Virus genome (UHGV): UHGV-0094961
From: a virus
DNA length: 38,929 nt
Strand: one strand, 5' to 3'
The notes below the pieces were generated by a model. It saw only the letters and a program-made list of their open reading frames with translations. It did not search any database and was not told the origin of the DNA. A program made the position numbers and the translations under genes. Below are positions 4,994-37,420 of this stretch, piece after piece; within the stretch, counting starts at the first letter, position 1, and each line of letters starts with the position of its first letter.

Positions 4994-4998
4994 AAATT

Positions 4999-5017
4999 TA
5001 ATGTTACAGGAGTAGGA
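4999..5017 (+). promoter_or_regulatory. conserved 19-nt motif TAATGTTACAGGAGTAGGA (copy 1), candidate phage-RNAP promoter
   Basis: Exact 17-nt core ATGTTACAGGAGTAGGA present three times in window; this copy sits immediately after the RNAP gene, before the late module. Confidence 0.4.
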
Positions 5018-5718: not shown

Positions 5719-5727
5719 GGGGGTAGC

Positions 5728-7323: not shown

Positions 7324-7337
7324 CAACAGAGGCATAG

Positions 7338-9877: not shown

Positions 9878-9920
9878 ACCTGGTGCCTTCGGGTGCCCGG
9901 GGCTTTTTTTTTTTTTTTTT
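9878..9920 (+). terminator. putative rho-independent terminator (GC-rich structured segment with UUCG loop candidate, then T17)
   Basis: 17 consecutive T at 9904..9920 after a GC-rich segment; lies downstream of the capsid module where T7-like phages carry their major terminator. Confidence 0.5.
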
Positions 9921-9965
9921 GTCCCTGTCTTAAGGGTCCAAGGGGTCTTTAATAGAGGAACAAAT

Positions 9966-16237: not shown

Positions 16238-19200
16238 ATGGCTCAGTTTCTGAACCAAGAACCGAATCCACAGGAAAAGGATTCTGCTAAGGGCGCAACA
16301 CTTAAACCTGCGCCTGAGCGCGTAGATTGGAACGATGCCGGAGACAACGGCTTAAACGCACTGGAGCGTGCCTCCTTACTGGCGCAGGCCAAGACCCCAG
16401 CTACTACAGCCGGGGAGAGCTTTGCGTCTGGTATGGGTAACAGCATCATCGCCGCAGCTATCCGTAAGGCCTCTGCCCCGGCATTTGACCGGGACCAGAA
16501 CTTTAACGCCAAGCAGACTCTGAGCAGCGATACCAGGGCTAAGCTGTATGCTCCGAATCAGGAAGAGATTGAGTACCTGCACGACTCTGTATCGGTCGAG
16601 GATTACAACTACCGCATGCAGCAGATGCTTGAGCAACGCAACCGTGACCGCTTAATGGCTGACAACACGGTAGCCGGGTTCGCGGGTATGTTGGTGGGTG
16701 ATTCTCCGTTCATCCTGGCCCCGATGTCTGCCGCTGGTATTGCTGGCCGCGCAGGCTTAGCTGCACGGACTGCTATCCGCGCTGCTGACGTAGGCTCCGC
16801 ATTCTATGCGCAGGACCAACTGGGCCAGTCTGCTGCGGTAACTGCACTGGTAGCGGGCGTAGCTGGGTTGGACCAGCTCTGGGATATGTCTAGGGCTGCT
16901 AAAGCTGCTGCTAAGGCCCGTACTGGGCGTGAGCCTATGTTCGACCCAGAAGCGCCTACAACTCGTACAGCGAGGGACGCTAATGTTACAGGAGTAGGAG
17001 AGGGAGAGGAAATCCTTACTAAGACACTGGATGAAAGCATCCAAGTATCTAGAAACAATACCGCCTCCGTGAACATGAAAGCACAGCACGTAGTTCAGTT
17101 CTTGAAGAAGTCCGAACACTTAACAGCAGGCCAGAAGGCTATTCTGGACACGCTGGGCGATGCTGTAAATGACATTGATTTTAAACTGGTAGCAGGCTCC
17201 GCAAACCGCAGCCGCTACACTTACGCACAGCAAGATTTAGCTAAGCGTGGAGAGGTGTCTCTACGCGCACCTACGCGAGCTAATGGCAGCACATGGACTA
17301 CAGCAGGGGACGCACTGCGTGCTATGGATGCAGACACAAGCAGGGTAGCCGTGCACGAACTGATTCATGCCGCCACTGCGCGCGCCGTTGACAGTAACCC
17401 AGAGATTGCTAAGCGCCTGGATGAAGTGCGCGCTGTTATTGCAGCGGACTCCACCTTGACGCCGCGTATGCGGTATTACGCTAGTAATGTGCACGAGATG
17501 CTGGCAGGCTTAGGTGACAGCCCTGAGTGGGTTGAGCATCTGGCGCGGACGAAATCCCCAACCGGTAAGAGCATGCTCCGCCAACTGGGCGAGTACATCA
17601 TGAATGCCCTGGGCATCAAGGCCAAAGGTTCTGCCTTGGAAGATGTCTTGGATGCGTACGAGGACGCCGTTAAGTGGACAGCTAAGGATTATGCAGACCA
17701 AGCCCAGAGCTTCCGTAGTGAAGCCTTCCAGGACCTGGCGGGCAGCACTACCCTAAACGAGGCTAAGGGTGCCCAAGCTATGCTGGATGGCGCTAAGAAG
17801 AAGCTCTCTACTATGTTTGCCCTGTACGATAACATCGCTCAAGGCAATGAAGACTTGGCTAAACTGCTAGTGTCGGATGCGTCCGCAGTAGGCGGCCGTC
17901 GCCCGTCTGTAGTGGACTTCAAGCGCAACCTCACTTTGGAGATGGACGCCAGCGCTAGCGTAGTGGAAGACGCTATCCTGGGCGCGTTGAAGGATAAGGG
18001 TGTAGGTTTCTCTGAGCGCTTCTTCCATCGGAGCAAGTTCCGCGCTGAGCGGGCTGCACTGGAAGACCGCCTGAGCAAGTACCTGGATGCTGCCTACAGT
18101 GCTGATGTAAACGGCCGAGCTGTTCCCGTACCGGATGTAGAGATTGCCCCACTGGTTGACGCCTATCGCCGCTCTGGCTGGGCAGGCAAGTGGCACGAGC
18201 ATATGCTCAATGCTGGTCTGGTGGATGATGGTGCGTTGGTTAAATCCGATTACTACTTCCCGCGTCAGTACAGCTACGACAAGATGCGCCAAGGTATTGC
18301 GCAGGGTAACACTCTGGACGACTACCGCGCCCTGTTCAGGTCCGCCCTGCGGGACGTGTACCCGAGCATGGAGTCAGAGGTAGTGCAGCGTGTTGCAAAG
18401 GAGATGGTTGACGGTATCTACAACGGCCGTGCAGGGCAGTCCGGCCCGATGTGGAAGCAGCTGATTAACGGCATGGGTAACGACGAGGTCGTTATGGCTA
18501 TGCGTAGCGCTGGTGTAGATGAATCTGCAATCCAGAGTTTCCTGGCTGGTAACGTACGCGAATCCGGTAGCACGTCCCCTGCGCGGAACCTGCGTCAGCG
18601 TACTCGGTTCAACATGGACAAAGAGTATCTGGTGAACGGTAAGAGCATGCGCATGCAGGACCTGATGGATACTGATGTAGCCAAGGTTATGCACGGGTAC
18701 ACTAACCGTATGTCTGGGCGTGTAGGCATGGCCTATGCAGGCGTACAGGGCCTGGGCCAGCTAGCTAAGATGATTGATGAGTCTAAGCACGCACTGGCGG
18801 ATTCCGCTAAGTGGGAGAAGACAGTCAATGACACCATCGACTTTATCCTGGGTGGGGCGCCTGCTGACGCCGGACAGCTTCCGGATTTGCTGCGTGCAGC
18901 CGGGAACATGGCTAACGCCACCATGCTTAAGAACTCCGGCCTGTATCAGCTGACTGACACTGCCCTGGCTATGAAGGAGTTCGGTATGGCTAGAGTGCTG
19001 CGTAGTATGCGCGACCAGCCTTGGTTCAAGGAAGGTGCCGTAGCTATCAAGACTCCGGATATGGCTACCCGTCTAGACACTGTACTGCGAGGTAATATCC
19101 AGAAGGAGATGCGCTTCCGCTGGTTGAATACGTACGCCGACGATAACCTGGACCTGACCCGTCAGGCCTCTTGGTTCAATGTAACCCAGAACGTTGGGCA

Positions 19201-24873: not shown

Positions 24874-26829
24874 ATGGCGTTAATTAGATTAGTAGCTCCA
24901 GAGCGGGTATTCTCCGACTTGGCGAGCATGGTAGCATATCCAAACTTTCAGGTACGGGACAAGATTAGCCTGCTGGGCAGCGCCGGTGGGGACTTCACCT
25001 TTACTACTGCCGCGTCGGTAGTGGATAACGGAACTGTGTTTGCTGTACCTGGTGGGTATCTACTCCGTAAATTCGTGGGTCCGGCATACAGCTCCTGGTT
25101 CAGCAATTGGGCGGGCATAGTAACGTTCATGAGCGCACCTAATAGGCACCTGGTTGTGGACACGGTCCTGCAGGCCACGAGTGTGCTCAACATCAAAAGC
25201 AACTCTACGCTAGAGTTTACCGATACCGGAAGAATCCTACCGGATGCTGCGGTTGCACGTCAAGTGCTTAATATTATCGGCTCGGCACCCTCGGTGTTCG
25301 TACCGTTAGCAGCGGATGCCGCGGCGGGCAGCAAAGTCATTACGGTGGCTGCCGGGGCTTTGTCTGCGGTAAAAGGTACGTACTTGTATCTTCGCTCTAA
25401 CAAGCTGTGTGATGGTGGTCCTAACACGTACGGTGTAAAGATTTCCCAGATTAGGAAAGTGGTTGGGGTTAGCACCTCCGGTGGCGTCACCAGTATTCGG
25501 CTGGATAAAGCGCTGCACTATAACTACTACCTGTCTGATGCCGCGGAAGTAGGTATCCCGACAATGGTGGAGAACGTAACCTTAGTATCCCCGTACATCA
25601 ACGAGTTCGGCTACGACGATTTGAACCGGTTCTTTACTATCGGTATCTCTGCCAACTTTGCCGCGGACTTGCACATCCAGGACGGGGTTATTATTGGCAA
25701 CAAACGCCCCGGGGCTTCTGATATAGAAGGGCGTAGTGCTATCAAGTTCAATAACTGCGTAGATAGTACTGTTAAGGGTACGTACTTCTACAACATCGGA
25801 TGGTATGGGGTAGAAGTGCTCGGCTGCTCAGAGGACACGGAAGTACACGATATCCACGCCATGGACGTACGCCACGCAATCTCTCTGAACTGGCAGAGCA
25901 CCGCAGACGGGGACAAGTGGGGAGAGCCTATCGAGTTCTTAGGCGTTAACTGCGAAGCCTACAACACAACCCAAGCTGGGTTTGATACTCATGACATTGG
26001 TAAGCGTGTGAAGTTCGTTCGATGCGTTTCGTACGACAGTGCTGACGATGGGTTCCAAGCGCGCACTAACGGGGTAGAGTACTTGAACTGTCGAGCTTAC
26101 CGTGCAGCTATGGACGGGTTCGCCTCCAACACCGGTGTAGCCTTCCCTATCTATAGGGAGTGCCTAGCTTATGACAACGTACGCTCTGGCTTTAACTGCT
26201 CGTACGGCGGTGGCTACGTTTATGACTGCGAGGCTCACGGTAGCCAGAATGGTGTGCGAATCAACGGGGGCCGTGTTAAGGGTGGTCGGTACACCCGCAA
26301 CTCCAGCTCTCACATCTTCGTTACTAAGGACGTAGCTGAGACAGCGCAGACATCCCTGGAGATTGATGGCGTGAGCATGCGCTACGACGGTACCGGGAGA
26401 GCTGTGTACTTCCACGGGACTATGGGCATTGACCCTACCCTGGTATCTATGTCCAATAACGACATGACCGGTCACGGCTTGTTCTGGGCATTGCTGAGCG
26501 GCTACGCCGTTCAACCTACGCCCCCGCGCATGTCCATGAACTTACTGGATGACACGGGTATCCGTGGAGTGGCAACCCTGGTGGCTGGTGAGGCTACAGT
26601 CAACGCCCGTGTACGCGGAAACTTTGGCAGCGTAGCTAACTCCTTCAAGTGGGTGTCTGAGGTTAAGTTGACGCGGTTGACCTTTCCCTCTAGTGCTGGG
26701 GCCTTGACGGTTACTGGCGTAGCTCAGAACCAGGATGTGCCTACACCTAATCCGGACCTAAACAGCTTCGTGATTAGGAGCAGTAACGCAGCGGACGTAT
26801 CCCAGGTAGCCTGGGAGGTGTATCTCTAA
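24874..26829 (+). CDS. tailspike protein, probable right-handed beta-helix (candidate polysaccharide depolymerase)
   Basis: 651 aa; repeated short beta-strand-like segments rich in G/N/V/T/D (NCVDSTVKGTYFYNIGWYGVEV, FVRCVSYDSADDGF, LNCRAYRAAMDGF) suggest parallel beta-helix; lacks T7 gp17 N-terminal anchor; last late gene. Confidence 0.6.
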   Translation: MALIRLVAPERVFSDLASMVAYPNFQVRDKISLLGSAGGDFTFTTAASVVDNGTVFAVPGGYLLRKFVGPAYSSWFSNWAGIVTFMSAPNRHLVVDTVLQATSVLNIKSNSTLEFTDTGRILPDAAVARQVLNIIGSAPSVFVPLAADAAAGSKVITVAAGALSAVKGTYLYLRSNKLCDGGPNTYGVKISQIRKVVGVSTSGGVTSIRLDKALHYNYYLSDAAEVGIPTMVENVTLVSPYINEFGYDDLNRFFTIGISANFAADLHIQDGVIIGNKRPGASDIEGRSAIKFNNCVDSTVKGTYFYNIGWYGVEVLGCSEDTEVHDIHAMDVRHAISLNWQSTADGDKWGEPIEFLGVNCEAYNTTQAGFDTHDIGKRVKFVRCVSYDSADDGFQARTNGVEYLNCRAYRAAMDGFASNTGVAFPIYRECLAYDNVRSGFNCSYGGGYVYDCEAHGSQNGVRINGGRVKGGRYTRNSSSHIFVTKDVAETAQTSLEIDGVSMRYDGTGRAVYFHGTMGIDPTLVSMSNNDMTGHGLFWALLSGYAVQPTPPRMSMNLLDDTGIRGVATLVAGEATVNARVRGNFGSVANSFKWVSEVKLTRLTFPSSAGALTVTGVAQNQDVPTPNPDLNSFVIRSSNAADVSQVAWEVYL

Positions 26830-27126
26830 GTAGCTCTAGAGCTTCCCTGGGGTATCTCTACGGTATCCCGGGGCACTGCTGGGGTGCTGCTGGGGTGCGC
26901 GTCTATACCTGGACCTGAAATTTATTAGACTCACGCGAGCCCCTCCCTCACCCTCAACGCGCCCAATTGCCCCCATAGGGGGGTGCCTAGCGTCAATTTA
27001 GGGGGGGGGGCACTGGTGGGGCCTGCTAGTGCGCACTAGAGCGCCTCAGCGGGCCTGTGCTGCGCTCTAAGGCTATTGCCAGTGCTACCCTATGGCTATC
27101 ACTGTGCGTTCACTAGGGCGCTTCCT

Positions 27127-27151
27127 GTGCGCTCTCTGTGCGCTCTCTGTG
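27127..27151. repeat. tandem direct repeat GTGCGCTCTCT x2.3
   Basis: Direct reading of sequence. Confidence 0.8.
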
Positions 27152-27384
27152 GGCCATAGGGGCGTGCTCTGCCTTGCTTATTTTGTGCGCCTCAGTGGGT
27201 CTGCCTAGTGCCTGTCTAGTGCCCGCGCAGTGGGGCCATAGGGTATGCCTGGTGCTATCCCGAGTGTGCACTAGGCTATCCACTGGCTATCCTTAGTGCT
27301 TTACATTGTGCTAATTATGTGCTACGCTGCGCGCTCCCCACTAGGGCGCACATCCACCACACCGCACTATCCAGCGCTATCCCT

Positions 27385-27414
27385 TTGCTCTTACTTTCAT
27401 TCGAAAGCTATTAT
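27385..27414 (+). promoter_or_regulatory. candidate sigma70-type promoter (TTGCTC-18-TATTAT)
   Basis: -35-like and -10-like hexamers with 18-bp spacer in the non-coding left-end region; host-RNAP early promoters are expected here. Confidence 0.3.
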
Positions 27415-27418
27415 GAAA

Positions 27419-27437
27419 TGATGTTACAGGAGTAGGA
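27419..27437 (+). promoter_or_regulatory. conserved motif TGATGTTACAGGAGTAGGA (copy 3), candidate phage-RNAP promoter near genome left end
   Basis: Same 17-nt core in the non-coding terminal region; no start codon follows. Confidence 0.35.
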
Positions 27438-27705
27438 GGGTTTTAGGGCACTATATACACTACTTAATACTAGTCCTTACTAGTCCCTACTAGGCACTCA
27501 CTAGTATGGCCCTGTGCCTACGTAGTAGGCTGCCATAACTACATAGTCACCGCATCACTACGTTCCTTCACTTACGTTACGTCACTACGTTCTGCTTTAT
27601 GTAGTATTAGATAGTATTGGCTAGACGTGGCTAGTATTGGCTACAGCCAGTGTCAGCACAGTGCTATCCCTAGTGGCTATCCCTATAATATATAAGGAGT
27701 TATAC

Positions 27706-28260
27706 ATGTTACCATCTAGTCGGGCTACGGCTAAAGCCACTGGTAGTACATACTACTACACAGGGAAGCACTGTAAGTACCAGCACACGGCAAAGCGCCT
27801 CACCAGTTCAGGGGAGTGCTCCGAGTGCTTTAAGATTAGGAGTACCAGCCCAGCTACTAAGGAGCGTATGCGGGGGTACCATAAGGTTTATCAGGTACGT
27901 AAGGCAGAGGCCTTGAGAGAGTACCGTAAGACACGCCGACCTAAGCACATTATGACAGAGGAGCAATTACAGCGTAAGGTTCGCCACAATGCGCGATACC
28001 GTGCTGCGCGTACTCAATCCGTACCCTCATGGTATGGCGAGTGGGGTGAGTTTGTTATGTTGGAGGCTATCGCTTTAGCAGCCGAGAGGGCGGAGTGTAC
28101 TGGCATAGCGTGGCATATTGACCATATGCTACCGCTAAAGGCTAAAGAGGTGTGCGGCTTACACTGTGCGGGGAACATTCAGGTGATACCCGCAACGCTT
28201 AATACACATAAGTGTAACAGGCTGCTATTCACGGAGCCGTTGGGGTGGCTAAAGGCATAA
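27706..28260 (+). CDS. HNH endonuclease with N-terminal Cys-rich motif
   Basis: Start set at ATG 27706 (AAGGAG RBS 6 nt upstream) inside track ORF 27637..28260; C-terminal WHIDHMLPL...GLHCAGNIQVIPATLNTHKCN is an HNH-type motif; N-terminal YYYTGKHCKYQH...GECSECF looks like a zinc-binding motif. Confidence 0.6.
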   Translation: MLPSSRATAKATGSTYYYTGKHCKYQHTAKRLTSSGECSECFKIRSTSPATKERMRGYHKVYQVRKAEALREYRKTRRPKHIMTEEQLQRKVRHNARYRAARTQSVPSWYGEWGEFVMLEAIALAAERAECTGIAWHIDHMLPLKAKEVCGLHCAGNIQVIPATLNTHKCNRLLFTEPLGWLKA

Positions 28261-28266
28261 ACTTGA

Positions 28267-28309
28267 GGTAATACAGTACTATAAATGCTGTATTACCTTT
28301 TTTTTTTTT
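28267..28309 (+). terminator. rho-independent terminator
   Basis: Perfect 10-bp stem GGTAATACAG / CTGTATTACC with 11-nt loop followed by 12 T, directly after the HNH stop codon. Confidence 0.75.
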
Positions 28310-28446
28310 ATAAAAAGTGCTTGCTTTTTTAAATCTGCTAGGTGTATATTTATCCCATCGAAAGCGATACGGTCTACCGGGTAGCTCTAGATTCCAGAGT
28401 CAACTGGATAAGTAGACAGCCTGATAAGTCATATGAAAAACAGGTA

Positions 28447-28475
28447 TTGACAATAGCAGTAAACGCTTTTATAGT
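28447..28475 (+). promoter_or_regulatory. near-consensus sigma70 promoter (TTGACA-17-TATAGT)
   Basis: Consensus -35, 17-bp spacer, -10 with one mismatch to TATAAT; in ORF-poor early region. Confidence 0.45.
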
Positions 28476-28724
28476 TTGAACCATGTTGCGGAGCAGTGTA
28501 GCGCCTAAAGGTGCTCTGACCACTAACCCTAGATACATGATAGTAGTAAGCGTGCCGGACGTTATCACCGGGGTTCTGAGACAAACCACACTGTCGAGGC
28601 GAGAGCAGCTCGCTCCTCTGAATCGAGGGAACAAGGCGCGGAGTGTATCCCGCAAAGAGCATATAACATAGCGTAGCAGTAACAAGGCTGCGCTAGATTA
28701 TGTTCTCTGAGAGGTAAGAAGATT

Positions 28725-28922
28725 ATGCGCAAAGCAAAGCGTTTAGCTTTACGGCGGAATATGCAGTTATCACTGAATCCCACCGACAACGTGCCACTCA
28801 CTGTGAAGCCAAGTAAACAAGGCCTGAGCTGTGAGCACAGGGTGAGAGGTAAGCAAAAGCAACGTGCTGGCAGTAAACAACCTTCGGGGTGGTCTACTAT
28901 GAATGCACAGTTCGGACACTAA
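28725..28922 (+). CDS. hypothetical small basic protein
   Basis: 65 aa, Lys/Arg-rich; GAGAGGTAAGAAG upstream of ATG; only RBS-supported ORF in the island. Confidence 0.3.
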   Translation: MRKAKRLALRRNMQLSLNPTDNVPLTVKPSKQGLSCEHRVRGKQKQRAGSKQPSGWSTMNAQFGH

Positions 28923-28927
28923 TTACA

Positions 28928-28959
28928 GCCTATAGCATCCTATGGGGTGCTATGTGAAG
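28928..28959 (+). promoter_or_regulatory. conserved hairpin motif copy A (GCCTATAGCATCC-TATG-GGGTGCTATGTGAAG)
   Basis: 9-bp stem (one G-U wobble) with 4-nt loop, followed by GTGAA; 39 nt upstream of ATG 28998; covaries with copy B. Confidence 0.4.
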
Positions 28960-28997
28960 TAATTCGTAAAGTAAACAACCAATCAAAGGGGTGCATT

Positions 28998-29582
28998 ATG
29001 ACTAATTCCACCAATTCAACAGGTAAAGTATTCAAGCTCACCGCTGCTGGCAGCATTCGTAAAGCGCTGGGCGACGTAGTGGAAGCAAAGCGTAACATCA
29101 CTATCAGCGCGCTCTTCCACGGCCTGATTAGCAGCAACGTATCATGGGCTACGGATATGCAGCGTAGCGATGCCGCTGACTTCGATATGGTGCTGCGTAC
29201 GCTGTTGCCTATCAAGCTCAACAAGGAGTCCGGCAAATATGGGTTCAACGCTAAGAAGTGCTATGTGTCGGCTGAAAAGCTGGGTATCGAACTGGACACT
29301 ATGCGTCTGGACTACAAACAAGCTGACAAGCAAGGCCGCGAAGTAATCGTAGCGAGGTTTTATAGCTCCTGTATGGCCCTGTACGCCGCCGAAGCAGAGC
29401 AGGTGAAGAATGACGCACTGGATGCCGATGCAGTGCGCCTGCAAGCGCTGGGGCGCGTTAAAAACGCTATTAAGAAGGCTAAAGAGACTGGCGTAAGCGA
29501 TGCTGACCTCGTGTCTATGCTGGTATCGCAAGGCGTGGACGTACGCGCTGTACTGGACGCAACTTTGAAGGCAGCGGCATGA
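28998..29582 (+). CDS. hypothetical early protein
   Basis: Start at ATG 28998 (AAAGGGG RBS) within track ORF 28947..29582; 194 aa; no recognisable motif. Confidence 0.5.
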   Translation: MTNSTNSTGKVFKLTAAGSIRKALGDVVEAKRNITISALFHGLISSNVSWATDMQRSDAADFDMVLRTLLPIKLNKESGKYGFNAKKCYVSAEKLGIELDTMRLDYKQADKQGREVIVARFYSSCMALYAAEAEQVKNDALDADAVRLQALGRVKNAIKKAKETGVSDADLVSMLVSQGVDVRAVLDATLKAAA

Positions 29583-29710
29583 TTTATAAAGTTCCGGTTA
29601 TCAAGTGGTGGGCCTTGTGCCCTGCGGCCAACGATGCCGACGCTTTCGATATCCCTGTGCGGGCAATAGCTCAAAAATGGGTGTACGAGGGATTGGGCGA
29701 GTATCTCTAG
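29579..29710 (+). CDS. hypothetical small protein (43 aa), not in supplied ORF track
   Basis: ATG overlaps upstream stop (ATGA coupling); reads MIYKVPVIKWWALCPAANDADAFDIPVRAIAQKWVYEGLGEYL. Confidence 0.3.
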   Translation: MIYKVPVIKWWALCPAANDADAFDIPVRAIAQKWVYEGLGEYL

Positions 29711-29716
29711 TGGCAA

Positions 29717-29747
29717 GCCTATAGCGTCCTACGGGACGCTATGTGAA
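29717..29747 (+). promoter_or_regulatory. conserved hairpin motif copy B (GCCTATAGCGTCC-TACG-GGACGCTATGTGAAT)
   Basis: Perfect 9-bp stem, 4-nt loop; 25 nt upstream of ATG 29772; two compensatory substitutions relative to copy A. Confidence 0.4.
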
Positions 29748-29771
29748 TGCAACTGGCGTATGAGGTGGCAT

Positions 29772-29993
29772 ATGAAAGCAATACTGGTTTATCCGGGTCA
29801 TGAACCCTGGCCCGTGTGGTGCAATCGCAAGTACGACGAATACAACTACACTGTGGTTATATTCTCTGACAAAGACACCAATCAGGAATCCCCATTCGAA
29901 TTTGTGGATACCTACACCGAAATGGCTGCCCGCACTGTGCTGGACGCCGTTAATCTTGGCATCATCGCCGATTGGAGACAACTATATGGTTAA
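29772..29993 (+). CDS. hypothetical early protein
   Basis: Start at ATG 29772 (GAGGTGG RBS) within track ORF 29760..29993; 73 aa. Confidence 0.45.
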   Translation: MKAILVYPGHEPWPVWCNRKYDEYNYTVVIFSDKDTNQESPFEFVDTYTEMAARTVLDAVNLGIIADWRQLYG

Positions 29994-30249
29994 TGTATTC
30001 AACATCATTGTGACCAGCGCTATGCTGGTGCTGGGCAACGACGTAAACAACCCAATCCCATACTGCACAGTGCAGTTGCAGCAACCCGCAACGCAGGAAC
30101 CGCAGCCGCGCCCTGAGTATGACCTCTTTGAAGACCCCGAGGGCGGCTGCAAAGAGCTAGGCGCGCGTATTCTTGCCGCGGTGCAGGAGCAGTACCCGGA
30201 CGCCGCCGTTACGCTTACGGTGGACAGTAAGAGCAACAGCGATATTTGA
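29986..30249 (+). CDS. hypothetical small protein with hydrophobic N-terminus
   Basis: ATG 29986 with GGAGA RBS inside track ORF 29800..30249; N-terminal MVNVFNIIVTSAMLVLG may be a signal peptide or TMD. Confidence 0.4.
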   Translation: MVNVFNIIVTSAMLVLGNDVNNPIPYCTVQLQQPATQEPQPRPEYDLFEDPEGGCKELGARILAAVQEQYPDAAVTLTVDSKSNSDI

Positions 30250-30257
30250 GGTTGGGC

Positions 30258-30437
30258 ATGCACGGAAAGAATCCTGAGACGCTGCTAATGCGTAGGCAGC
30301 AACCAACAATCGAAGGGCTGGCGCGGGAGTACAACGCGAAGGCAGCACTGCGCCAGCACTATGAGAAACAAGCAAAGCGCCTGGGTATGACTCTGCGCGG
30401 TTACTGCTTACGGTTTAATGTAAGGGGTGTAGTATGA
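30258..30437 (+). CDS. hypothetical small protein
   Basis: ATG 30258 with GAGGTTGGG RBS, inside track ORF 30246..30437. Confidence 0.4.
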   Translation: MHGKNPETLLMRRQQPTIEGLAREYNAKAALRQHYEKQAKRLGMTLRGYCLRFNVRGVV

Positions 30438-30643
30438 TTAAGTATGACGTGTACAAGCGCCCGAACGGGCTGTTCTACCGAGTGGCGATACACGACATGT
30501 TCCATACTCGGGCGGAACTCTTTGCTCCCCATAGCAATGTGTGGGTTAAGTCTGCGCTAAAGGTGGGGGATCTGGTGTCCAGTCCCAAGTCGTCCCTGCT
30601 GGCCCGCAACGTGGTATTCAAGGACAGCGTATGCTCACAGTAG
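30434..30643 (+). CDS. hypothetical small protein
   Basis: 69 aa; AAGGGG RBS; ATGA coupling with upstream gene. Confidence 0.45.
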   Translation: MIKYDVYKRPNGLFYRVAIHDMFHTRAELFAPHSNVWVKSALKVGDLVSSPKSSLLARNVVFKDSVCSQ

Positions 30644-31119
30644 ACGAAACAGCGCTGCTGTGCTTGATTCAGGAATATCTCTACGTCGACGCCACCTCGA
30701 CCACTGGTTTGCGTTGGAAGAAAGCACCTAGAGCACGCACACCGGTTGGAGCGGAAGCGTTCACAAGCAAGAGTAACGGGGGCTACTACCACGGAATGCT
30801 TCGGGGCCGGGACTTAAAAGCTCATAGGGTGGTTTTCGCCCTTACCAACGGGTACTTTCCACCAGTAGTTGACCATATCAACGGGCAGCGGGATGATAAT
30901 CGTCCTGAAAACCTCCGCGCGACCACTGCCCTAATCAATAACCACAACCGAGAGGCGAAGGGGTATTACCCATTTCGAGGAGGATACATGGCCCGCATAG
31001 CAGCAAACGGGAAGCAGATGTATCTTGGGGTGTACCCCACAGAAAATGAAGCCCGCGAAGCATACTTAGCGGCTAAAGCTAGGCTGCACCCAACCACTCC
31101 TACTGGGAGGCTCACATGA
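30631..31119 (+). CDS. HNH endonuclease with AP2-like DNA-binding domain
   Basis: VDHINGQRDDNRPENLR (HNH motif) followed by GYYPFRGGYMARIAANGKQMYLGVYPTENEAREAY (AP2-like). Confidence 0.7.
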   Translation: MLTVDETALLCLIQEYLYVDATSTTGLRWKKAPRARTPVGAEAFTSKSNGGYYHGMLRGRDLKAHRVVFALTNGYFPPVVDHINGQRDDNRPENLRATTALINNHNREAKGYYPFRGGYMARIAANGKQMYLGVYPTENEAREAYLAAKARLHPTTPTGRLT

Positions 31120-31460
31120 TGACGGTAGATGAAGCTGCTGTTTTCATGTGGAAGCTGCTGGAAACGCAGGGCAAGTGCGGGTGCCCTTGGGGAACATTCA
31201 AAGAGGTTCCTAATGAACTCAAGCAAATCATACCGGTCGAGCGCAGACTCCTCCGTGTTCGTAGGCAGGACTCTACGGTGGTGCTCACAACCTATCGCGA
31301 GTATACAGAATCTGCCGCGCGGCAGTTGCAAGAGCACATTCAGTTCGATGTGGTTGCAGCACTGCTACGGTACGGGTATCGTGGAGCATATACAAGATTT
31401 AGGGCGGCAGTACGGGCATATTATAAGCAAGCGCAGATCGCTGCATGGTACGCACGCTGA
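31116..31460 (+). CDS. hypothetical protein
   Basis: 114 aa; GGGAGG RBS; protein-like composition, unlike the overlapping frame. Confidence 0.5.
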   Translation: MMTVDEAAVFMWKLLETQGKCGCPWGTFKEVPNELKQIIPVERRLLRVRRQDSTVVLTTYREYTESAARQLQEHIQFDVVAALLRYGYRGAYTRFRAAVRAYYKQAQIAAWYAR

Positions 31461-31509
31461 CTTAGTGGTTGGCGATGAACTCAAAGAACCTATTCAGGGG
31501 CAAACTAAA

Positions 31510-33186
31510 ATGCAAGAGACTAACACAGCACCTATCGAATGGAAAATCGTATTACCGGAAGGTGCAAACGCACTGCCGATTAAAGAATCAATGTATTCCA
31601 GCGGTGATTACTGGACCCCGTTCCAGGACTTGCAAATGCAAGGGGAGGACCATCCCCACACTGAGGGTCCGCTGCAGGTGCTTATGGGTCTCCGCACTGT
31701 CAGTGCGCACACTCCAGGCTTAGAGGTGACTATAGGCGGGGCACTGCACCCAGAGTATCGCGAATCAACGATGACGCTCGGCCCGTTGCAAAAGGTGGAC
31801 CTGTACCGGTCCGGAACTTTCTGCGAACTCTTTGAACCGGTGCGAATCACCATAGACAGCAAGTTCTGGGAACGCCGCCGCGACTTCTATGAGGGCGAGG
31901 ATGTAGTGGTTGAGCGCGTAGTTGCTTGCGTCGAAGAATTCACAGGTTACAAGGTGCACAAGCAGGCCGTGCAGTTATTTGAGCGCATCATGCTTGCACC
32001 AGAAGAGCAGCAGCGCCGCTTATGCACTGGCTACGATTACGGCCGCCACGCCCGCGATGGCAACTTAGCTGCGCTGCTCATGAAGTTGCACGGATTCATA
32101 GTATCTAGATTCGCCGTGCCATTGGGCTTTGGTTTCCGCAACGGTGAGCCTATCGTGATGCTGGGGCAGCCGCGGATGCACAAGGACTTCGCCGCAGTTA
32201 CCGAGTACCGTTGTGTGGAGATGCGCGTAGGTAAGTGGCTCGCTAACTACTACGGCAATGGCGTAGACTTCCGCGATGCTATCGAAGACCTCAAGGCTAT
32301 GAACGTAGAGCCTACAACGTACCTGTGCAAGACCGAGCAGGAATGGTACGACTCCTACGAGAATGGCCCGGGTAGCTGCATGAGTGGATACTCATTTGAG
32401 CATAGCCCGGTGCGGGTGTATGCTACTACCAGCCACGGGCTGCCGGACAACGGGCTGCGCCTGTTCATCCAGTACACCGGGGAACTGTTCGGGGATGACT
32501 TCGAAGTGCAGGCACGGGCAATCGTTAACACAGAAACTAACGAGTACGTCCGCGCTTACGGCGACGCTGCGGATGCAATCCTGCGGGGGCATGGGTACAC
32601 CAAAAACATTGAGTGTCTCGAAGGGGTAATGCTGGCGCGAATACCGCACCCAACATACAACGGCGCAGTGCTGATGCCATACCTAGATAGCAGCCAGTGC
32701 GGCGTAGATGAGTATGGGGATGATGCCTTTGTAATCCGTGATGCTTATGAGTACGAGGCACAAGACTCAGAAGGATACATCTACGTAGGCACTGAGTCTG
32801 CTGGGTGCTGCTGCTGTGAATGTCGCTACTCTGTAGATGACATGCAGGAGACCGCAGATGGTGATATGGTCTGCGACGGCTGCGTAGAAGAAGGGGATTT
32901 TGTGTACGTAGTTGGGCGTGATGGTCTGCATAATCGCTGGAGCTGCACCTGGTCTGATTACCACGACGCCTATGTATACGACGAGGACATAGAGCGCTGC
33001 GAAGTAGAGGGTGTAGTGCACGACCAAGAGGAACTGGTGTTTGCACAGGACCGGCAAGTGCTTATTGAACACGCAGAAGAACACCCAGTGCACGGGTTAA
33101 TTCTCACTGAGCATGCAGCTGATTGCTTGGGAGAGAAGTACCTGGGAAACGATGAAGATGAAGAAGAAGCAGAGGAGGCAGCTTAA
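31510..33186 (+). CDS. large acidic early protein with Cys cluster, unknown function
   Basis: Long ORF (track 31129..33186); first about 380 nt in this frame is Ser/Arg/Cys-rich and overlaps a better ORF, so start placed at ATG 31510 (uncertain); contains SAGCCCCECRYS...MVCDGC and acidic tail DEDEEEAEEAA. Confidence 0.45.
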   Translation: MQETNTAPIEWKIVLPEGANALPIKESMYSSGDYWTPFQDLQMQGEDHPHTEGPLQVLMGLRTVSAHTPGLEVTIGGALHPEYRESTMTLGPLQKVDLYRSGTFCELFEPVRITIDSKFWERRRDFYEGEDVVVERVVACVEEFTGYKVHKQAVQLFERIMLAPEEQQRRLCTGYDYGRHARDGNLAALLMKLHGFIVSRFAVPLGFGFRNGEPIVMLGQPRMHKDFAAVTEYRCVEMRVGKWLANYYGNGVDFRDAIEDLKAMNVEPTTYLCKTEQEWYDSYENGPGSCMSGYSFEHSPVRVYATTSHGLPDNGLRLFIQYTGELFGDDFEVQARAIVNTETNEYVRAYGDAADAILRGHGYTKNIECLEGVMLARIPHPTYNGAVLMPYLDSSQCGVDEYGDDAFVIRDAYEYEAQDSEGYIYVGTESAGCCCCECRYSVDDMQETADGDMVCDGCVEEGDFVYVVGRDGLHNRWSCTWSDYHDAYVYDEDIERCEVEGVVHDQEELVFAQDRQVLIEHAEEHPVHGLILTEHAADCLGEKYLGNDEDEEEAEEAA

Positions 33187-34232
33187 TGTTCTTGAATCCG
33201 CATGGGATTGATATGCAGCTGCTCTTGCAGATACTGCGAACGCACCGGCCTAGCTGGGCAAGCACTAAGTGGTTCGATCCGCTGCTTATGCAGGCGCTGG
33301 GTAGTGGTATGCACTACGTAAAGGATAAGCACGGGAACTACTTCGTGCTGGTGGGGGACTCAGAGCAAAGTGATGTAGCGTTTACGTCTCATCTCGATAC
33401 GGTGGCCCGCCCAACCAGCGCTGCACCGGACGTCGGTTGCACTAACAAGGGCGTGCTGTTCGTAAAGAATCCGCAACAAGCTGACTGCTTGGGGGCGGAC
33501 TGCGGTGCCGGTGTCTACCTGATGCTGGAGATGCTGCGGCGGGGTGTGCACGGACGCTACTGCTTCTTCGTGGATGAGGAGGTTGGCTGCGAAGGCAGCG
33601 CTGCATCGGTCAAGGATGACACTGGATTTTGGACTGGTGTCAAGGCGATGATTAGCTTTGACCGCCGCGGAGATGGTATCATTACGCACCAGCGGTACAT
33701 GCGCTGCTGCTCTGATACCTTTGCCAAGACTCTGGCAGAGCGCCTAGGACGCACGGAGCAGCACTTACAAAAGGGTGTGTATACTGACTCAGCCGAGTTC
33801 GTCGGCATCATCCCTGAGTGCACCAACGTCGGTGTAGGGTACATGCACGAGCACACTCCGGATGAGGTGCTGGACCTGAACATCCTGGGGAAAGTGCTTG
33901 AGCGGGTACTGCAAGATGGTACGTTCTCGCACCTTCCGATTGAGCGGGACCCGAAGGTAGTAGAGCCGGACCAATGGCTCTCAGCATCGACGCTCAGTTT
34001 ACGGCAGCCATGGGATATGCCGCCAGACGAGGACCCGCAATTGCTGGCAGCGTTCCGTGTAGTGTCGCAGCTTTCTAAACAACAACTGGTTAGCTGGGTG
34101 CAGGAGAATCCAGAGAAGGCGGCGGAGTACATAATGGTGTTCTCCGATTACGGCTTTAAAGAAGAACTGATTGAATTAGGCACCCGAGTCGTAGAAGACT
34201 GGGGTGGATACGATAATATTGTGGAGGGTTAA
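33186..34232 (+). CDS. putative dinuclear-zinc metallopeptidase-like protein (MH-clan, M20/M28/M42-like)
   Basis: Motifs HLDTV (His69), GADCGAG (Asp105), VDEEVG (Glu131-132), later YMHEHTPDE, with spacing very similar to the metal ligands of DapE/ArgE-type peptidases; AGGAGG RBS. Confidence 0.45.
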   Translation: MFLNPHGIDMQLLLQILRTHRPSWASTKWFDPLLMQALGSGMHYVKDKHGNYFVLVGDSEQSDVAFTSHLDTVARPTSAAPDVGCTNKGVLFVKNPQQADCLGADCGAGVYLMLEMLRRGVHGRYCFFVDEEVGCEGSAASVKDDTGFWTGVKAMISFDRRGDGIITHQRYMRCCSDTFAKTLAERLGRTEQHLQKGVYTDSAEFVGIIPECTNVGVGYMHEHTPDEVLDLNILGKVLERVLQDGTFSHLPIERDPKVVEPDQWLSASTLSLRQPWDMPPDEDPQLLAAFRVVSQLSKQQLVSWVQENPEKAAEYIMVFSDYGFKEELIELGTRVVEDWGGYDNIVEG

Positions 34233-34234
34233 TT

Positions 34235-34693
34235 ATGCCTAATTTTAAAGTTGGTGATAAAGTTGTGCGTACAGTTGAGAGCAAAACGTTCTGGCTCATT
34301 CAAGGCGTTAAGAATTATTACATTGTAACGGATGTTGGCGCAGGTGGTTACTGGTTACAGTTGGATGGGGTGCGAGATAAGGAGGACCCCCGTCCGTGGT
34401 ACGCGCCAAACTTCGAACTGTACCAAGAGCCCGAGGACGAGGAGCTGCCGCCGGTTCCAGCCAGTGTAACCTACGTGAACTCCAAGCGCGATTCTGGAAA
34501 TGACCAGCGCCTAGTCCTTGATAAGGACAACGGTGAAGGGGAAGGATTAATGTACATCGGAGTAATCCCTCGCAAGGGAAGTACTCGAGCACAGATGGAG
34601 ATTGGGATTAACATCGACCCTGATTCAGCCCTGCAGTTGGCGCACGACCTGCGCCGCATGGCTATGGATATCAAACGTAAGGAGAAAGCATAA
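34235..34693 (+). CDS. hypothetical protein
   Basis: 152 aa; GGAGGG RBS; N-terminal KVGDKVVR motif also seen at start of ORF 1922. Confidence 0.5.
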   Translation: MPNFKVGDKVVRTVESKTFWLIQGVKNYYIVTDVGAGGYWLQLDGVRDKEDPRPWYAPNFELYQEPEDEELPPVPASVTYVNSKRDSGNDQRLVLDKDNGEGEGLMYIGVIPRKGSTRAQMEIGINIDPDSALQLAHDLRRMAMDIKRKEKA

Positions 34694-34881
34694 TGAAAGT
34701 AAAAGCTCTAGAAAATAGCCCAGAGAACTTTCTGTTCACGGACAGAACCTATACCTTAATTAACGTAAAGGATGGTCGCGCCACTATAAAAGATGATTTA
34801 ACCAATTTAACTACGGTGGTTAAAGTGGAGCGAATTTTACTCACAGAGGGTAACGCTACCGATGGACCAGCCCTGGCTTAG
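34693..34881 (+). CDS. hypothetical small protein
   Basis: 62 aa; start ATG overlaps upstream stop codon (translational coupling). Confidence 0.4.
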   Translation: MKVKALENSPENFLFTDRTYTLINVKDGRATIKDDLTNLTTVVKVERILLTEGNATDGPALA

Positions 34882-35662
34882 AGCGTGCAAGCGCCTGGCC
34901 GTGGGGCAGAGGGCACGCTTTCGGTGCTGCGGCAGGGACGCCGCCGGGGTGCTCTACAATAACCCGGATGCCTGGGAATACTATTGCCACCGCTGCAAAC
35001 AGGTGGGCAAGGAGCACAAGCAGTACCAGCGCATACGGTTACAGGAAGAGCCGAGGGTGCAGCCCTCTGCACCTGCAGATGCAATTTGCATTAGCCAAGC
35101 GCCTGCGGAAACGCAGAGTTTTATTTACGGATTCCTGACCACAAAGGGAATCATGCCTGAAATGGTGGAGGATGCAGAATGGAGCAAAGAGAAACAGCGG
35201 ATAATCTTCCGTGTCGGAAGCGCTGCCCTAGGCCGTGCAGTGCATGCTCGGCAGCAACCGAAGTGGGTAATGTACGGCCAGCCAATAGCTTTCGCTGTCG
35301 CGGCACCTGCCGTAGCACCAGCTGTAGCTGCGGCCGCACCTCTAAAGGTCGTGCTCACCGAGGACTTACTCTCAGCCCGGAAGATACAGCACGCAGTTAC
35401 GAGCTACAGTGCGTTGAACGTGCAGGCTATAGCTATGCTGGGTACACGCTTGCCCACGCCGCTGAGGGCTTGGCTGATACAGAATCGCCCGGAAGTGATT
35501 CTGATGCTGGACAATGACCCAGCAGGGCACGCTGGAGTAGCGGCGGCGCGCCGCGCACTGCGTCCGTTCATGCAGTGTCGTGAGCATTACTTCGCTGCGG
35601 ACCCGAAGGATGCAGAAATCAAAGAGATTCTGGAGGCTATAATTGGACCTAATAGTTGTTAA
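34862..35662 (+). CDS. DNA primase (zinc-ribbon plus TOPRIM)
   Basis: N-terminal Cys motif FRCCGRD...YYCHRCKQ and TOPRIM-like VILMLDNDPAGHAG, as in the T7 gp4 primase domain. Confidence 0.7.
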   Translation: MDQPWLRACKRLAVGQRARFRCCGRDAAGVLYNNPDAWEYYCHRCKQVGKEHKQYQRIRLQEEPRVQPSAPADAICISQAPAETQSFIYGFLTTKGIMPEMVEDAEWSKEKQRIIFRVGSAALGRAVHARQQPKWVMYGQPIAFAVAAPAVAPAVAAAAPLKVVLTEDLLSARKIQHAVTSYSALNVQAIAMLGTRLPTPLRAWLIQNRPEVILMLDNDPAGHAGVAAARRALRPFMQCREHYFAADPKDAEIKEILEAIIGPNSC

Positions 35663-35666
35663 GGCA

Positions 35667-36923
35667 ATGTGCACGCAGAAGGTTTGGAACCGACTGCGAG
35701 AGCAGATTCCTAAGTCGATGCTTGCGCCGGATACGTCGAACCTTCTGGACTGGGTGGGGCTGTACTGGAACACGTACCCGGAGCACCAGGAGGTGCGATG
35801 GGATGCGATGCAGAGCATGCTCAACCTCCGGGCGGGGCACCTATCCCGGGAAGAGCGGGTAATCATGGACGAGCTTATGCGGGGAGTACAAGCCGTGCCG
35901 CAGGATTCTGTGGTGGGGATTGTCCAGACCCTGAATGAGCTGGCCTACAGCGGGGAGGTAGCAGCGCTGACGCAGCGCTACCAAGACGGTGAGGAGATTG
36001 ATTACCTGCTGGAAATGAAGCACCTACAGCGCAAGTACGGTGACGGCGCTGCGGTGCATGATTCGCTGCTTGAATGGGAGAGCGGTAGTGTTGACGAAAT
36101 ACTTGCCGCGACTGACGAGAGCGGCGGTCTTAAACTGGGCGTGTTCGAGCAACTCTCTAGCAACATCCGGGGCCTACGCGGCGGGGACTGCATCGCAGTG
36201 GCTGCCCCTGTGGACTCTGGTAAAACTAGCCTGCTTGCTGCTATTGCTGTGGACTTTGCTGAGCAGATGCAGCAGCAGCCGGAAGTATACGGGGGCCGCC
36301 CGATTCTCTGGCTGGTTAACGAGGGTCCGGCGACGCGTACGGTGCCGAGGGTATATCAAGCGGCGCTGCACTGGACTCTGGCAGAGATTAAGGACAGGCA
36401 CAGTAAGCAAGAGTTCGTGCCAGCCTACCTCAAGAAAGTAGGCAGGGCTGACCGGATTCGTGTTAAGGCTGCGCACTCCTTGACGATGGCGCAGATATCC
36501 ACGCTCATGGAGGAGATGCGCCCTGCGGTAATCATCATCGACATGGTGGCGAACATCCGTGGCGGCACTATGGAGACCGAGCACCAGAACCTCGAGGCGA
36601 AATGGCAGGAGCTGCGCATACTTGGGTGCGAGAACGACTGCGCTATTGTAGGCACTATGCAGCTTTCACTCGAAGGTTACAACATGCTGTTCCCGCCGCT
36701 CACCGCTATGAAGCAGAGCAAGATTGGCGTACAGGGTGCCCTGGACTTGGCTATTATGATGGGATGCTTGGACAGAAACGAGCAGCCGCACATGCAAAAC
36801 GTCCGTGGTATCAGTACTCCGAAGAACAAGATGGCACTGTCTGGTAAAGAGTCGCTACTGCAATTCGAGGTGGGATTCGAGCCGGGTCGTTGCCGCTTTG
36901 ACGAGGGCCAGATTAACCGGTGA
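35667..36923 (+). CDS. replicative DNA helicase (DnaB/T7 gp4 helicase-like)
   Basis: Walker A AAPVDSGKTSLL, later VIIIDMVANI (Walker B-like); first ATG at 35667 after primase stop (track ORF starts at TTG 35643). Confidence 0.8.
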   Translation: MCTQKVWNRLREQIPKSMLAPDTSNLLDWVGLYWNTYPEHQEVRWDAMQSMLNLRAGHLSREERVIMDELMRGVQAVPQDSVVGIVQTLNELAYSGEVAALTQRYQDGEEIDYLLEMKHLQRKYGDGAAVHDSLLEWESGSVDEILAATDESGGLKLGVFEQLSSNIRGLRGGDCIAVAAPVDSGKTSLLAAIAVDFAEQMQQQPEVYGGRPILWLVNEGPATRTVPRVYQAALHWTLAEIKDRHSKQEFVPAYLKKVGRADRIRVKAAHSLTMAQISTLMEEMRPAVIIIDMVANIRGGTMETEHQNLEAKWQELRILGCENDCAIVGTMQLSLEGYNMLFPPLTAMKQSKIGVQGALDLAIMMGCLDRNEQPHMQNVRGISTPKNKMALSGKESLLQFEVGFEPGRCRFDEGQINR

Positions 36924-36928
36924 CTTCC

Positions 36929-36958
36929 CTAGCGCCTTCTCTGAGGGCGCTATGTAGG
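36929..36958 (+). promoter_or_regulatory. hairpin motif copy C (TAGCGCC-9 nt loop-GGCGCTATGTAGG)
   Basis: 7-bp perfect stem followed by ATGT, 20 nt upstream of ATG 36980; shares stem-GCTATGT architecture with copies A and B. Confidence 0.3.
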
Positions 36959-36979
36959 TACATGGTATAGGAGGGCTAA

Positions 36980-37420
36980 ATGGAAATGAGTGAGTGTATC
37001 GACCACGGACGTTCGCGCAGCCTATCCCCAGAAGGCTACGCCTTGGTAGCTAAACCCGGAGTTCGCAGTCGTTGCGTACACCTGCACAGGCTGGTGCTGG
37101 CGGAGAAGTTAGGGGTGCCGCTTAAAGCTCTAGATGGAGTAGTTGTCAGGCACACTTGCGACAACCCACGGTGCATCAACCCAGAGCACCTAATACCTGG
37201 AACCCTAGCAGATAACAACAAGGACCGAGCAGAGCGCGGCCGTAGTGCTAAGCGGGTGCCTAGCCGCCAACGCCTAACTCCTAAAGACTGTGAAGATATC
37301 TGTGCCAAGCATACGCCGAGGATTTATGGCGTTACCCATCTGGCCCGCGAGTACGGCGTAGACACTAACGTCATATACAAAGTGCTAAGAGGAGAGTACC
37401 CTTGTCAACAACCAGTATAA
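36980..37420 (+). CDS. HNH homing endonuclease (paralog of 1114..1521)
   Basis: HTCDNPRCINPEHL and N-terminal CIDHGR shared with ORF 1114; GGAGGG RBS; sits between helicase and DNA polymerase genes. Confidence 0.75.
   Translation: MEMSECIDHGRSRSLSPEGYALVAKPGVRSRCVHLHRLVLAEKLGVPLKALDGVVVRHTCDNPRCINPEHLIPGTLADNNKDRAERGRSAKRVPSRQRLTPKDCEDICAKHTPRIYGVTHLAREYGVDTNVIYKVLRGEYPCQQPV

Follow-up and report, generated by a model that had tools for sequence, protein, structure and literature searches.

Candidate T7-type RNase III processing hairpins between early and replication genes of a KP34-like Klebsiella phage

What function is served by the stem-loop motif that recurs between genes in the virus genome UHGV-0094961, and does it act as DNA or as RNA? 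The stretch of DNA analyzed here (hereafter, the window; 38,929 nucleotides, or 38.9 kb) shows about 90% identity to the Klebsiella phages KpV41 and KpV71 and their relatives, and is, by its sequence, a KP34-like Klebsiella podovirus (genus Drulisvirus, subfamily Slopekvirinae, family Autographiviridae). A first-pass annotation of the window had picked out three copies of the motif, namely A (28928..28959), B (29717..29747), and C (36929-36958), and had listed an RNase III-type processing site, a stabilizing 5' hairpin, and a protein-binding operator as candidate functions. As a sequence, the motif was already known: Eriksson et al. 2015 (PMC4411677) listed it for five phages of the KP34-like group under the label "putative phage promoter" and offered a nick site as the alternative, and the published consensus, AGCCTATAGCGTCCTACGGGGCGCTATGTGAA, is that of copies A and B at the same two sites of the early region. 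That description nonetheless came without the lower stem, the covariation, copy C, and the spread beyond the genus, and our literature search retrieved no paper giving the motif any other function. In this study, we find that the promoter label is refuted and that the most plausible reading of the motif is as a new sequence family of T7-type RNase III processing signals; in particular, A, B, and C are probably signals at which host RNase III would cleave the transcript so that the upstream mRNA retains a protective hairpin at its 3' end.

Copies A and B are genuine, their match being far above what chance would give. When the three regions were folded, every copy was found to be a two-tier hairpin on the + strand, composed of a lower stem of 7-9 bp, a small internal loop, an upper stem of 10 bp, and a variable loop (Table 1). 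A and B share AGCC-UAUAGC...GCUAUG-UGAA around a hairpin with a 4-nt loop. This core and its loop had been located correctly in the first-pass annotation; the stem described there as 9 bp is, however, the 10-bp upper stem with a conserved U·G pair closing its base, and the internal loop and the lower stem had been overlooked, so that the full spans are 28918-28967 and 29707-29756. Copy C is also present, not with the 7-bp GC stem assigned to it but with a 10-bp stem (UAGCGCCUUC/GAGGGCGCUA) and a 3-nt loop. In 3/3 copies, the stop codon of the upstream gene lies within the 5' arm of the lower stem, and the distance from the end of the hairpin to the next start codon is 38 nt (A), 24 nt (B; the true start is 29772), and 21 nt (C), in line with the 20-40 nt given before. 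The gene following C, which had been counted among three early genes, encodes an HNH endonuclease in the replication module and is not early. An intrinsic terminator was considered and rejected; as had been pointed out, no T run follows A, B, or C, and a scan of 26800-30000 gave terminator-like sites only at 28265-28299 and 27159-27175.

With a covariance model built on the genus alignment described below, A and B were detected in the window at 77 bits (E about 1e-21) and 72 bits (E about 1e-20), respectively, and the other matches at E<0.01 were only the reverse strands of A and B at 13-16 bits. Rfam gave no match for the window and is uninformative here, because the T7 sites themselves are likewise unmatched. 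A sliding-window scan of minimum free energy for hairpins was also tried and gave no discrimination, the G+C-rich genome folding everywhere.

Selection on the structure, as proposed in the first-pass annotation, is strongly supported by the relatives, in which the motif is conserved with covariation and 12-17 of the 20 pairs change on both sides. The genus set was taken from 40 IMG/VR loci around the 194-amino-acid (aa) gene between A and B and provided 67 distinct copies, all from Drulisvirus; 91.6% of the cells in this alignment are in standard pairs, and 12/20 pairs are changed on both sides. Among 500 shuffles, none (0/500) reached the observed pairing or covariation score, and 2/500 and 5/500 reached two count measures. 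When the 3' partner was slid by 1-3 columns as a control, furthermore, the pairing was 25-47%, and RNAalifold independently gave the same two-tier structure for the genus alignment. Most of the covariation at the genus level sits in the lower stem, which occurs in three unrelated, self-complementary versions: namely, UAAUUAC/GUAAUUA in A, UAGUAGCA/UGCAACUA in B, and GGUUAAU/AUUAACC in A', an extra copy found in some genomes. The upper stem is mostly fixed in sequence, with exchanges of A-U to G-C, U-A to C-G, and U·G to C-G or U-A, and its two U·G wobbles at pairs 10 and 3 (counted from the loop) are conserved in 66/67 and 64/67 sequences, respectively. As for the two compensatory differences between A and B that had first attracted attention, A-U versus G-C at pair 4 and U·G versus U-A at pair 3 are both real, but the U-A is a singleton of copy B in this genome.

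The motif is not confined to the genus. BLAST with the 32-nt consensus hit 298 phage records, including phages of Klebsiella (211), Pectobacterium (53), and Escherichia (20) as well as those of Cronobacter, Enterobacter, Pantoea, and Dickeya. The carriers that we fetched were Gaspode, BF25/12, and PPWS2 (Corkvirinae), PP2 (Melnykvirinae), mellemsur (Bonnellvirus), LIMEzero (Waewaevirus), and an unclassified Cronobacter phage, and copies outside the genus were recovered by the covariance model at 31-65 bits. In the cross-genus set of 59 distinct sequences, 90.9% of the cells pair, 17/20 pairs are changed on both sides, and 0/500 shuffles reached the observed values on all five measures, although the structure is somewhat favored by this alignment having been fitted to the covariance model. 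The sequence sets cover four subfamilies of Autographiviridae plus unplaced genera; each lineage has its own complementary lower stem, and at least six unrelated but self-complementary versions of the lower stem exist overall. The length of the upper stem is constant across the family, and the U·G at pair 3 is kept in 51/59 sequences. At position 11, a C on the 5' side (56/59) faces a U on the 3' side (57/59) as judged from single-column counts. Two pairs are flipped in the upper stem of LIMEzero, from UAUAGC/GCUAUG to UAAUGC/GCAUUG, with compensation on the other arm. Conservation is lowest in the loop, which varies freely (UAUG, UACG, UGCG, UUCG, CACG, ACA, and a 9-nt insertion). A tighter pattern scan of IMG/VR gave 49 stretches, all of them on contigs of 21-48 kb, and the same scan over 596 Gb of bacterial genomes gave just 7 stretches in unrelated taxa, which is at or below the chance level. 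A loose IMG/VR pattern (CCTATAGC N10-18 GCTATGT) was set aside, the matches listed being mostly due, apparently, to chance.

These alignments also tell which strand and which kind of molecule are under selection. The fold of the + strand is more stable than that of its complement in 54/58 sequences, and the mean difference is 4.9 kcal/mol. Because the wobbles and the C×U mismatch are conserved, the loop varies freely, and the lower stems are different yet paired, our results argue for a sense-strand RNA under structural selection, and not a DNA element, as the functional molecule.

Among the candidates proposed for such an RNA, an RNase III-type site is favored by the anatomy of the hairpins. 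We folded five early intergenic regions of T7 that hold RNase III sites and compared the hairpins pair by pair from the loop. R0.5 and R1.1 of T7 have a loop of 4-5 nt (4 nt in A and B, 3 nt in C) and an upper stem of 10 bp, as do A, B, and C, and all of these hairpins have C×U at position 11. Position 12 is U-A in R0.5/R1.1 and C-G in A, B, and C; position 13 is C×U in R0.5/R1.1 and also in C, and G×A in A and B. Beyond position 13, R0.5/R1.1 continue into an irregular region, A and B into A×A and then the lower stem, and C directly into the lower stem. The arrangement of mismatch, Watson-Crick pair, and mismatch at positions 11-13 in A, B, and C is hence that of T7 R0.5 and R1.1, where RNase III reportedly cuts after the 3' nucleotide of position 13 (after 1468 in R0.5 and after 5887 in R1.1; attributed to Dunn and Studier 1983). 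These coordinates are consistent with the 11-bp plus 2-nt geometry of Pertzev and Nicholson.

The published determinants of RNase III substrates can be traced in the hairpins as well. A 10-bp upper stem, 3-4 internal-loop positions, and a lower stem of 7-9 bp make up the approximately two helical turns (20-22 bp equivalents) of a substrate. The minimal helix between loop and cut is 11 bp (PMC1540722), and 10 pairs and the C×U at position 11 precede the predicted cut site in our hairpins, like in natural R1.1. The distal box is UA/UG, and at the second of its positions the requirement for U·G is stringent (PMC1540722). When we mapped R1.1, the box fell on pairs 2 and 3 counted from the loop; U·G is present at pair 3 in A and C, and the full UA/UG in C, while pair 2 is C-G in both A and B and pair 3 is U-A in B. 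In the proximal box, G-C blocks binding when at position 2 and catalysis when at position 4, the latter being U·C in natural R1.1 (PMC1540722). In the register taken from the 34-nt minimal substrate, proximal-box position 2 is position 9 from the loop, where A-U was found in 67/67 and 59/59 sequences, free of the antideterminant; proximal-box position 4 is position 11 with its C×U, so that no G-C antideterminant is present there, either. The sequence of a tetraloop is irrelevant to RNase III (PMC1540722), and mismatches at the target site are known to result in single-strand cleavage and a stabilizing 3' hairpin (PMC3867540).

We then expressed the shared architecture as a descriptor (a loop of 3-5 nt, 10 pairs, C/U at position 11, a Watson-Crick pair at position 12, and a non-pair at position 13). 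In the window, exactly four sites, namely A, B, C, and 9927-9955, fit the descriptor, all on the + strand and all intergenic; in bases 1-8000 of T7, exactly R0.5 and R1.1 do. Sixty dinucleotide shuffles of the window gave 0.25 sites on average and 2 at maximum, and unrelated viral loci contain about 1 site per 39 kb. A stricter first descriptor, in which U·G and a lower stem without gaps were obligatory, failed to find B, C, or any of the T7 sites and gave way to this one.

Based on the anatomy, we infer the following course of events, with RNase III as the factor involved. Polycistronic sense-strand transcripts from the early and replication regions would fold A, B, and C into irregular hairpins of about two helical turns. 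Host RNase III would bind the 10-bp upper stem with its distal-box-like U·G three pairs from the loop and cut once, on the 3' side, within the internal loop of mismatch, Watson-Crick pair, and mismatch. The cuts are predicted after A28957 (A), A29746 (B), and U36955 (C), each of which is 13 nt past the loop, the position at which T7 R0.5 and R1.1 are reportedly cut. The 3' end of the upstream message, immediately beyond its stop codon, would thereby be closed by a stable hairpin blocking 3' exonucleases, and the 5' end of the downstream message would lie 24-41 nt ahead of its start codon, with a possible effect on mRNA stability or expression. A stabilizing 5' hairpin, which had also been suggested, is not favored, because the hairpin would be at the 3' end of the upstream RNA after a T7-type cut; besides, no promoter lies directly upstream, and the hairpin begins inside the upstream stop codon.

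Several points weigh against RNase III as the factor. In the literature that we searched, no data on RNA ends or cleavage were found for any KP34-like phage. The 32-nt core is more conserved than the neighboring genes, even where the flanking genes are non-homologous; structure and the rules of RNase III may not need such conservation of the core, and a further, sequence-specific factor is therefore possible. A and B carry C-G at pair 2, where U-A would be optimal, and B carries U-A in place of U·G at pair 3; every substitution tested in the distal box of R1.1 lowered the reactivity about 5-fold or more. Our register depends, moreover, on the T7 cut coordinates attributed to Dunn and Studier 1983, and the recovery of A-C by the descriptor is partly circular, because it was written after both sets of sites were known. 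In the variants with a deletion between A and B (see below), the lower stem of the remaining chimeric hairpin is unpaired, and the lower stem can hence be dispensed with, at least in the short run. Finally, local alignment of A, B, and C with the five T7 sites gave z of -1.0 to 2.0 against shuffles, i.e., no sequence homology, and membership of our hairpins in the T7 class is therefore functional and architectural, not by descent.

In a broader comparison with T7, the hairpins A and B resemble R0.5/R1.1 also in being intergenic in an early operon transcribed by the host and in occurring as several copies with a shared core and different lower stems; likewise, the 10-bp upper stem carries 5'-U·G-3' wobbles and is without the inhibitory G-C at proximal-box positions 2 and 4. 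Unlike the T7 sites, however, A-C start inside the upstream stop codon, and pair 2 of A and B is C-G instead of U-A. Also, KP34-like phages carry the gene of RNA polymerase late in the replication module, so that the host polymerase transcribes more of the genome than in T7.

The inclusion of copy C needs a separate justification. The first-pass annotation had linked C to A and B through the shared GCTATGT string, and this link was lost: the counts in the window were 5 for GCTATGTR (3.9 expected), 28 for CCTATAGC when one mismatch was allowed (37.8 expected), and 3 for CGCTATGT (1.4 expected), so that no enrichment is evident, and the covariance model search of the window left C undetected even at E<=10. 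Copy C is thus tied to A and B by architecture, not by sequence, and its architecture and position are the grounds on which we assign it to their functional class. Hairpin C is conserved directly 3' of the helicase stop codon in most relatives in Drulisvirus, whatever gene comes next, and more than 200 records lose their homology with the window a few bases beyond the hairpin, which itself shows too little variation to support a covariation analysis. Weaker, intermediate copies are present in other genomes, and C is possibly a diverged paralogue of A/B.

Which explanations other than RNase III processing would account for these hairpins? The high conservation of the core raises the idea of an RNA site for another sequence-specific protein, such as a translational regulator, a phage-encoded processing enzyme, or a nut/put-like antitermination factor. 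Across Slopekvirinae, Corkvirinae, Bonnellvirus, Waewaevirus, and Wanjuvirus, the 32-nt core keeps 87-100% identity even where the adjacent protein is about 50% identical or non-homologous, and several pairs in the upper stem are invariant, as would be expected from such a site. The loop, however, which is the usual contact in sites of the boxB and coat-protein types, is precisely the part that varies freely; the hairpins are clear of the Shine-Dalgarno sequence and start codon of the next gene, no single neighbor gene is common to all motif-bearing genomes, and C and the site at 9920 resemble A and B in architecture only and not in sequence. A hairpin of the boxB/nut type was rejected also because the stems are of 10 plus 7-9 bp and the promoter is 0.4-8 kb away; no search was made for boxA. 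The protein families of the small neighboring genes are all without an assigned function and hence give no pointer to a binding partner. We therefore regard a dedicated RNA-binding protein of this sort as unlikely.

Another candidate is a passive intercistronic hairpin acting as a stabilizer or insulator without RNase III, which blocks 3'-5' exonucleases after cuts made elsewhere (e.g., by RNase E) or isolates the folding and translation of neighboring cistrons. Such a role would suit the position of each hairpin directly after a stop codon, the stability of the folds (-18.6 to -26.6 kcal/mol), and the UACG and other stable tetraloops common in the family, and the absence of cleavage data for the hairpins from the searched literature would be in keeping with it. 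A stabilizer nonetheless needs nothing but a stable stem. It would not account for an upper stem fixed at 10 bp, a distinct lower stem with covariation, the conserved internal loop of C×U, pair, and mismatch, the U·G at pair 3, or the invariant A-U at pair 9, all of which are features of RNase III substrates. This explanation is hence quite unlikely in our view.

A function at the level of DNA, be it the phage promoter or strand-specific nick site of Eriksson et al. 2015 (PMC4411677), a replication origin, or a cruciform/operator for a dimeric protein, is the least probable by far. Purified KP34 RNA polymerase makes no RNA from a polymerase chain reaction (PCR) fragment of this region, and the real KP34 promoter is T(A/G)ATGTTACAGGAGTA (Lu et al. 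2019, PMC6834552), which is unlike the motif and is intact in the window at 4999, 16981, and 27419, so a promoter for the single-subunit phage RNA polymerase was rejected. While the near-palindromic sequence, the use of the copies as natural recombination points, and the limitation of the 2019 negative transcription test to a linear PCR fragment would speak for some DNA element, no copy precedes late genes, and the dyad is interrupted on the complementary strand by the conserved U·G (which would be A×C there) and C×U. That the lower stems change in sequence from copy to copy and still pair is, like the variable loop, not what a DNA-binding protein would require.

Taken as RNase III signals, the hairpins replace a wrong label, "putative phage promoter," which is still in the literature and in genome annotations, with a testable function at the RNA level, and provide single-nucleotide predictions of mRNA processing for KP34-like phages, which are widely used therapeutic candidates against Klebsiella. 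They also suggest that RNase III-based mRNA processing, best known from T7, reaches podovirus lineages with a different transcription strategy. Given that the motif is compact and highly conserved, it could serve as a part for insulating or stabilizing mRNA.

The setting of the hairpins in the genome is summarized in Table 1. All genes of the window are on the + strand, and its map is permuted, with the gene of RNA polymerase at 2525-4993, structural genes up to about 26.8 kb, the left genome end at about 27.0 kb, and the early and replication genes at 27.4-38.9 kb. A sigma-70-type promoter, recognized by its match to the consensus, probably starts a host-polymerase transcript running through A and B; as it comes after a strong terminator, hairpins A and B are placed inside this presumed early transcript. 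The terminator (28265-28309) is a very strong intrinsic one with a 14-bp stem plus T10 and lies 3' of an endonuclease VII-like gene, approximately 150 nt before the sigma-70-type promoter; transcripts from the phage promoter at the left end (27419) may therefore largely stop before the early genes. Further exact copies of the strong KP34 promoter are at 4999-5014 and 16981-16996, and a weak promoter is at 4946.

Table 1. Hairpins, neighboring genes, and promoters in the window.
Feature	Position	Strand	Remarks
Hairpin A	28918..28967	+	-18.6 kcal/mol, z -3.45; 77.2 bits
Hairpin A, lower stem	28918-28926/28959-28967	+	holds stop codon TAA 28920-22 of the 65-aa open reading frame (ORF)
Hairpin A, internal loop	28927-28930/28955-28958	+	A×A, G×A, C-G, C×U
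Hairpin A, upper stem	28931-28940/28945-28954	+	loop UAUG 28941-28944
Hairpin B	29707..29756	+	-26.6 kcal/mol, z -5.98; 72.2 bits
Hairpin B, lower stem	29707-29715/29748-29756	+	holds stop codon TAG 29708-10 of the 43-aa ORF
Hairpin B, internal loop	29716-29719/29744-29747	+	
Hairpin B, upper stem	29720-29729/29734-29743	+	loop UACG 29730-29733; pair 3 U-A
Hairpin C	36920..36963	+	-20.5 kcal/mol, z -2.73; below detection by the covariance model
Hairpin C, lower stem	36920-36926/36956-36963	+	one bulged A; holds helicase stop codon TGA 36921-23
Hairpin C, internal loop	36927-36929/36953-36955	+	C×U, C-G, C×U
Hairpin C, upper stem	36930-36939/36943-36952	+	U-A, U·G at pairs 2, 3; loop UCU
65-aa early ORF (phrog_32970)	28725..28922	+	function not known; stop codon within hairpin A
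194-aa early gene (phrog_5277)	28998..29582	+	function not known; between hairpins A and B
43-aa ORF	29579-29710	+	follows the 194-aa gene; stop codon within hairpin B
73-aa early gene (phrog_7657)	29772..29993	+	function not known; downstream of hairpin B
DNA helicase gene	35643..36923	+	stop codon within hairpin C
HNH homing endonuclease gene	36980..37420	+	downstream of hairpin C; replication module; variable slot
Sigma-70-type promoter	28447..28475	+	TTGACA-17-TATAGT, 11/12; consensus match alone
Strong promoter of KP34 RNA polymerase	27419..27434	+	exact match (TGATGTTACAGGAGTA); experimentally defined in KP34

The copies of the motif mark sites of rearrangement. In three IMG/VR loci (L076 9127-9187, L186 202-262, and L194 9954-10014), the 194-aa and 43-aa genes are missing, and the 65-aa gene is followed by a single chimeric hairpin, composed of the 5' arm of A and the 3' arm of B, and then by the 73-aa gene. 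The repeated core therefore acts as a recombination point, and the cassette of the 194-aa and 43-aa genes is dispensable; since this A-B cassette is dispensable in nature, the marking of natural recombination points by the motif matters for engineering these phages. The borders of the hairpins coincide with variable gene slots, and the slot behind hairpin C (36962 onward) is occupied by different genes in different phages. In other loci (L129 1516-1665, also L143 and L147), hairpins A and A' are arranged in tandem, A' having its own complementary lower stem; between the two is only a mini-ORF of 7 codons (MVGYGEG) with a good Shine-Dalgarno sequence, the stop codon of which is again in the lower stem.

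In the promoter-early stem-loop (PeSL) cassettes of T4-type phages, attributed to Arbiol et al. 2010, repeated regulatory stem-loops reportedly stand at the borders of gene cassettes and serve as recombination points for the gain and loss of small genes. Our hairpins are similar in that they are at cassette borders, with the deletion of the 194-aa plus 43-aa cassette between A and B and the break of homology after C. PeSLs, however, contain a promoter, which our hairpins do not, and recombination at the hairpins of the window looks like a by-product of the repeat and not like a function that has been shown. It would be a rather doubtful extension that the 32-nt core is recognized by a further conserved sequence-specific factor and may also work as a portable cassette border for the gain, loss, and exchange of small early genes across genera, as a podovirus analogue of PeSL.

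A series of comparable hairpins was seen in the Pantoea phage LIMEzero (2281-6313), where nearly every early intergenic spacer of 60-70 nt has a two-tier hairpin, none of which is annotated. Many of them share a lower stem like GUGAUU/AAUCAC. The first spacer contains a copy of the KP34 type (40.7 bits), and the hairpin in the second spacer (2957-3018) resembles T7 R0.3, R0.5, and R1.1 in sequence (z 3.7-5.2); the KP34-type element therefore fills the same kind of slot as the T7-type sites. Architecture and kind of position are the same as in the window, but LIMEzero has about ten such hairpins of diverse sequences, compared with three plus the one at 9920 in the window.

This fourth hairpin of the T7 type (9920-9963, + strand) has a 3-nt loop and a 10-bp upper stem with U·G at pair 3, followed by C×U, U-A, and G×G, and shares with A and B, as C does, the architecture but not the sequence. 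It is located directly after a rho-independent terminator (9879-9919, T19), and its lower stem includes, in the 3' arm, the Shine-Dalgarno sequence of a gene with its start at 9966. When 15 distinct upstream sequences of relatives were compared, 3/3 substitutions in the stem were found to keep the pairing.

Two other features of the window were also noticed. It contains three endonuclease genes, comprising two HNH genes and one endonuclease VII-like gene (27707-28260; 30631-31119; 36980-37420). At the left end, furthermore, 27000-27300, upstream of the first phage promoter, is non-coding and has very stable local hairpins and many short repeats, such as GCGCTCTCTGTG, which occurs twice, and the CCATAGG / CTAGTG motifs.

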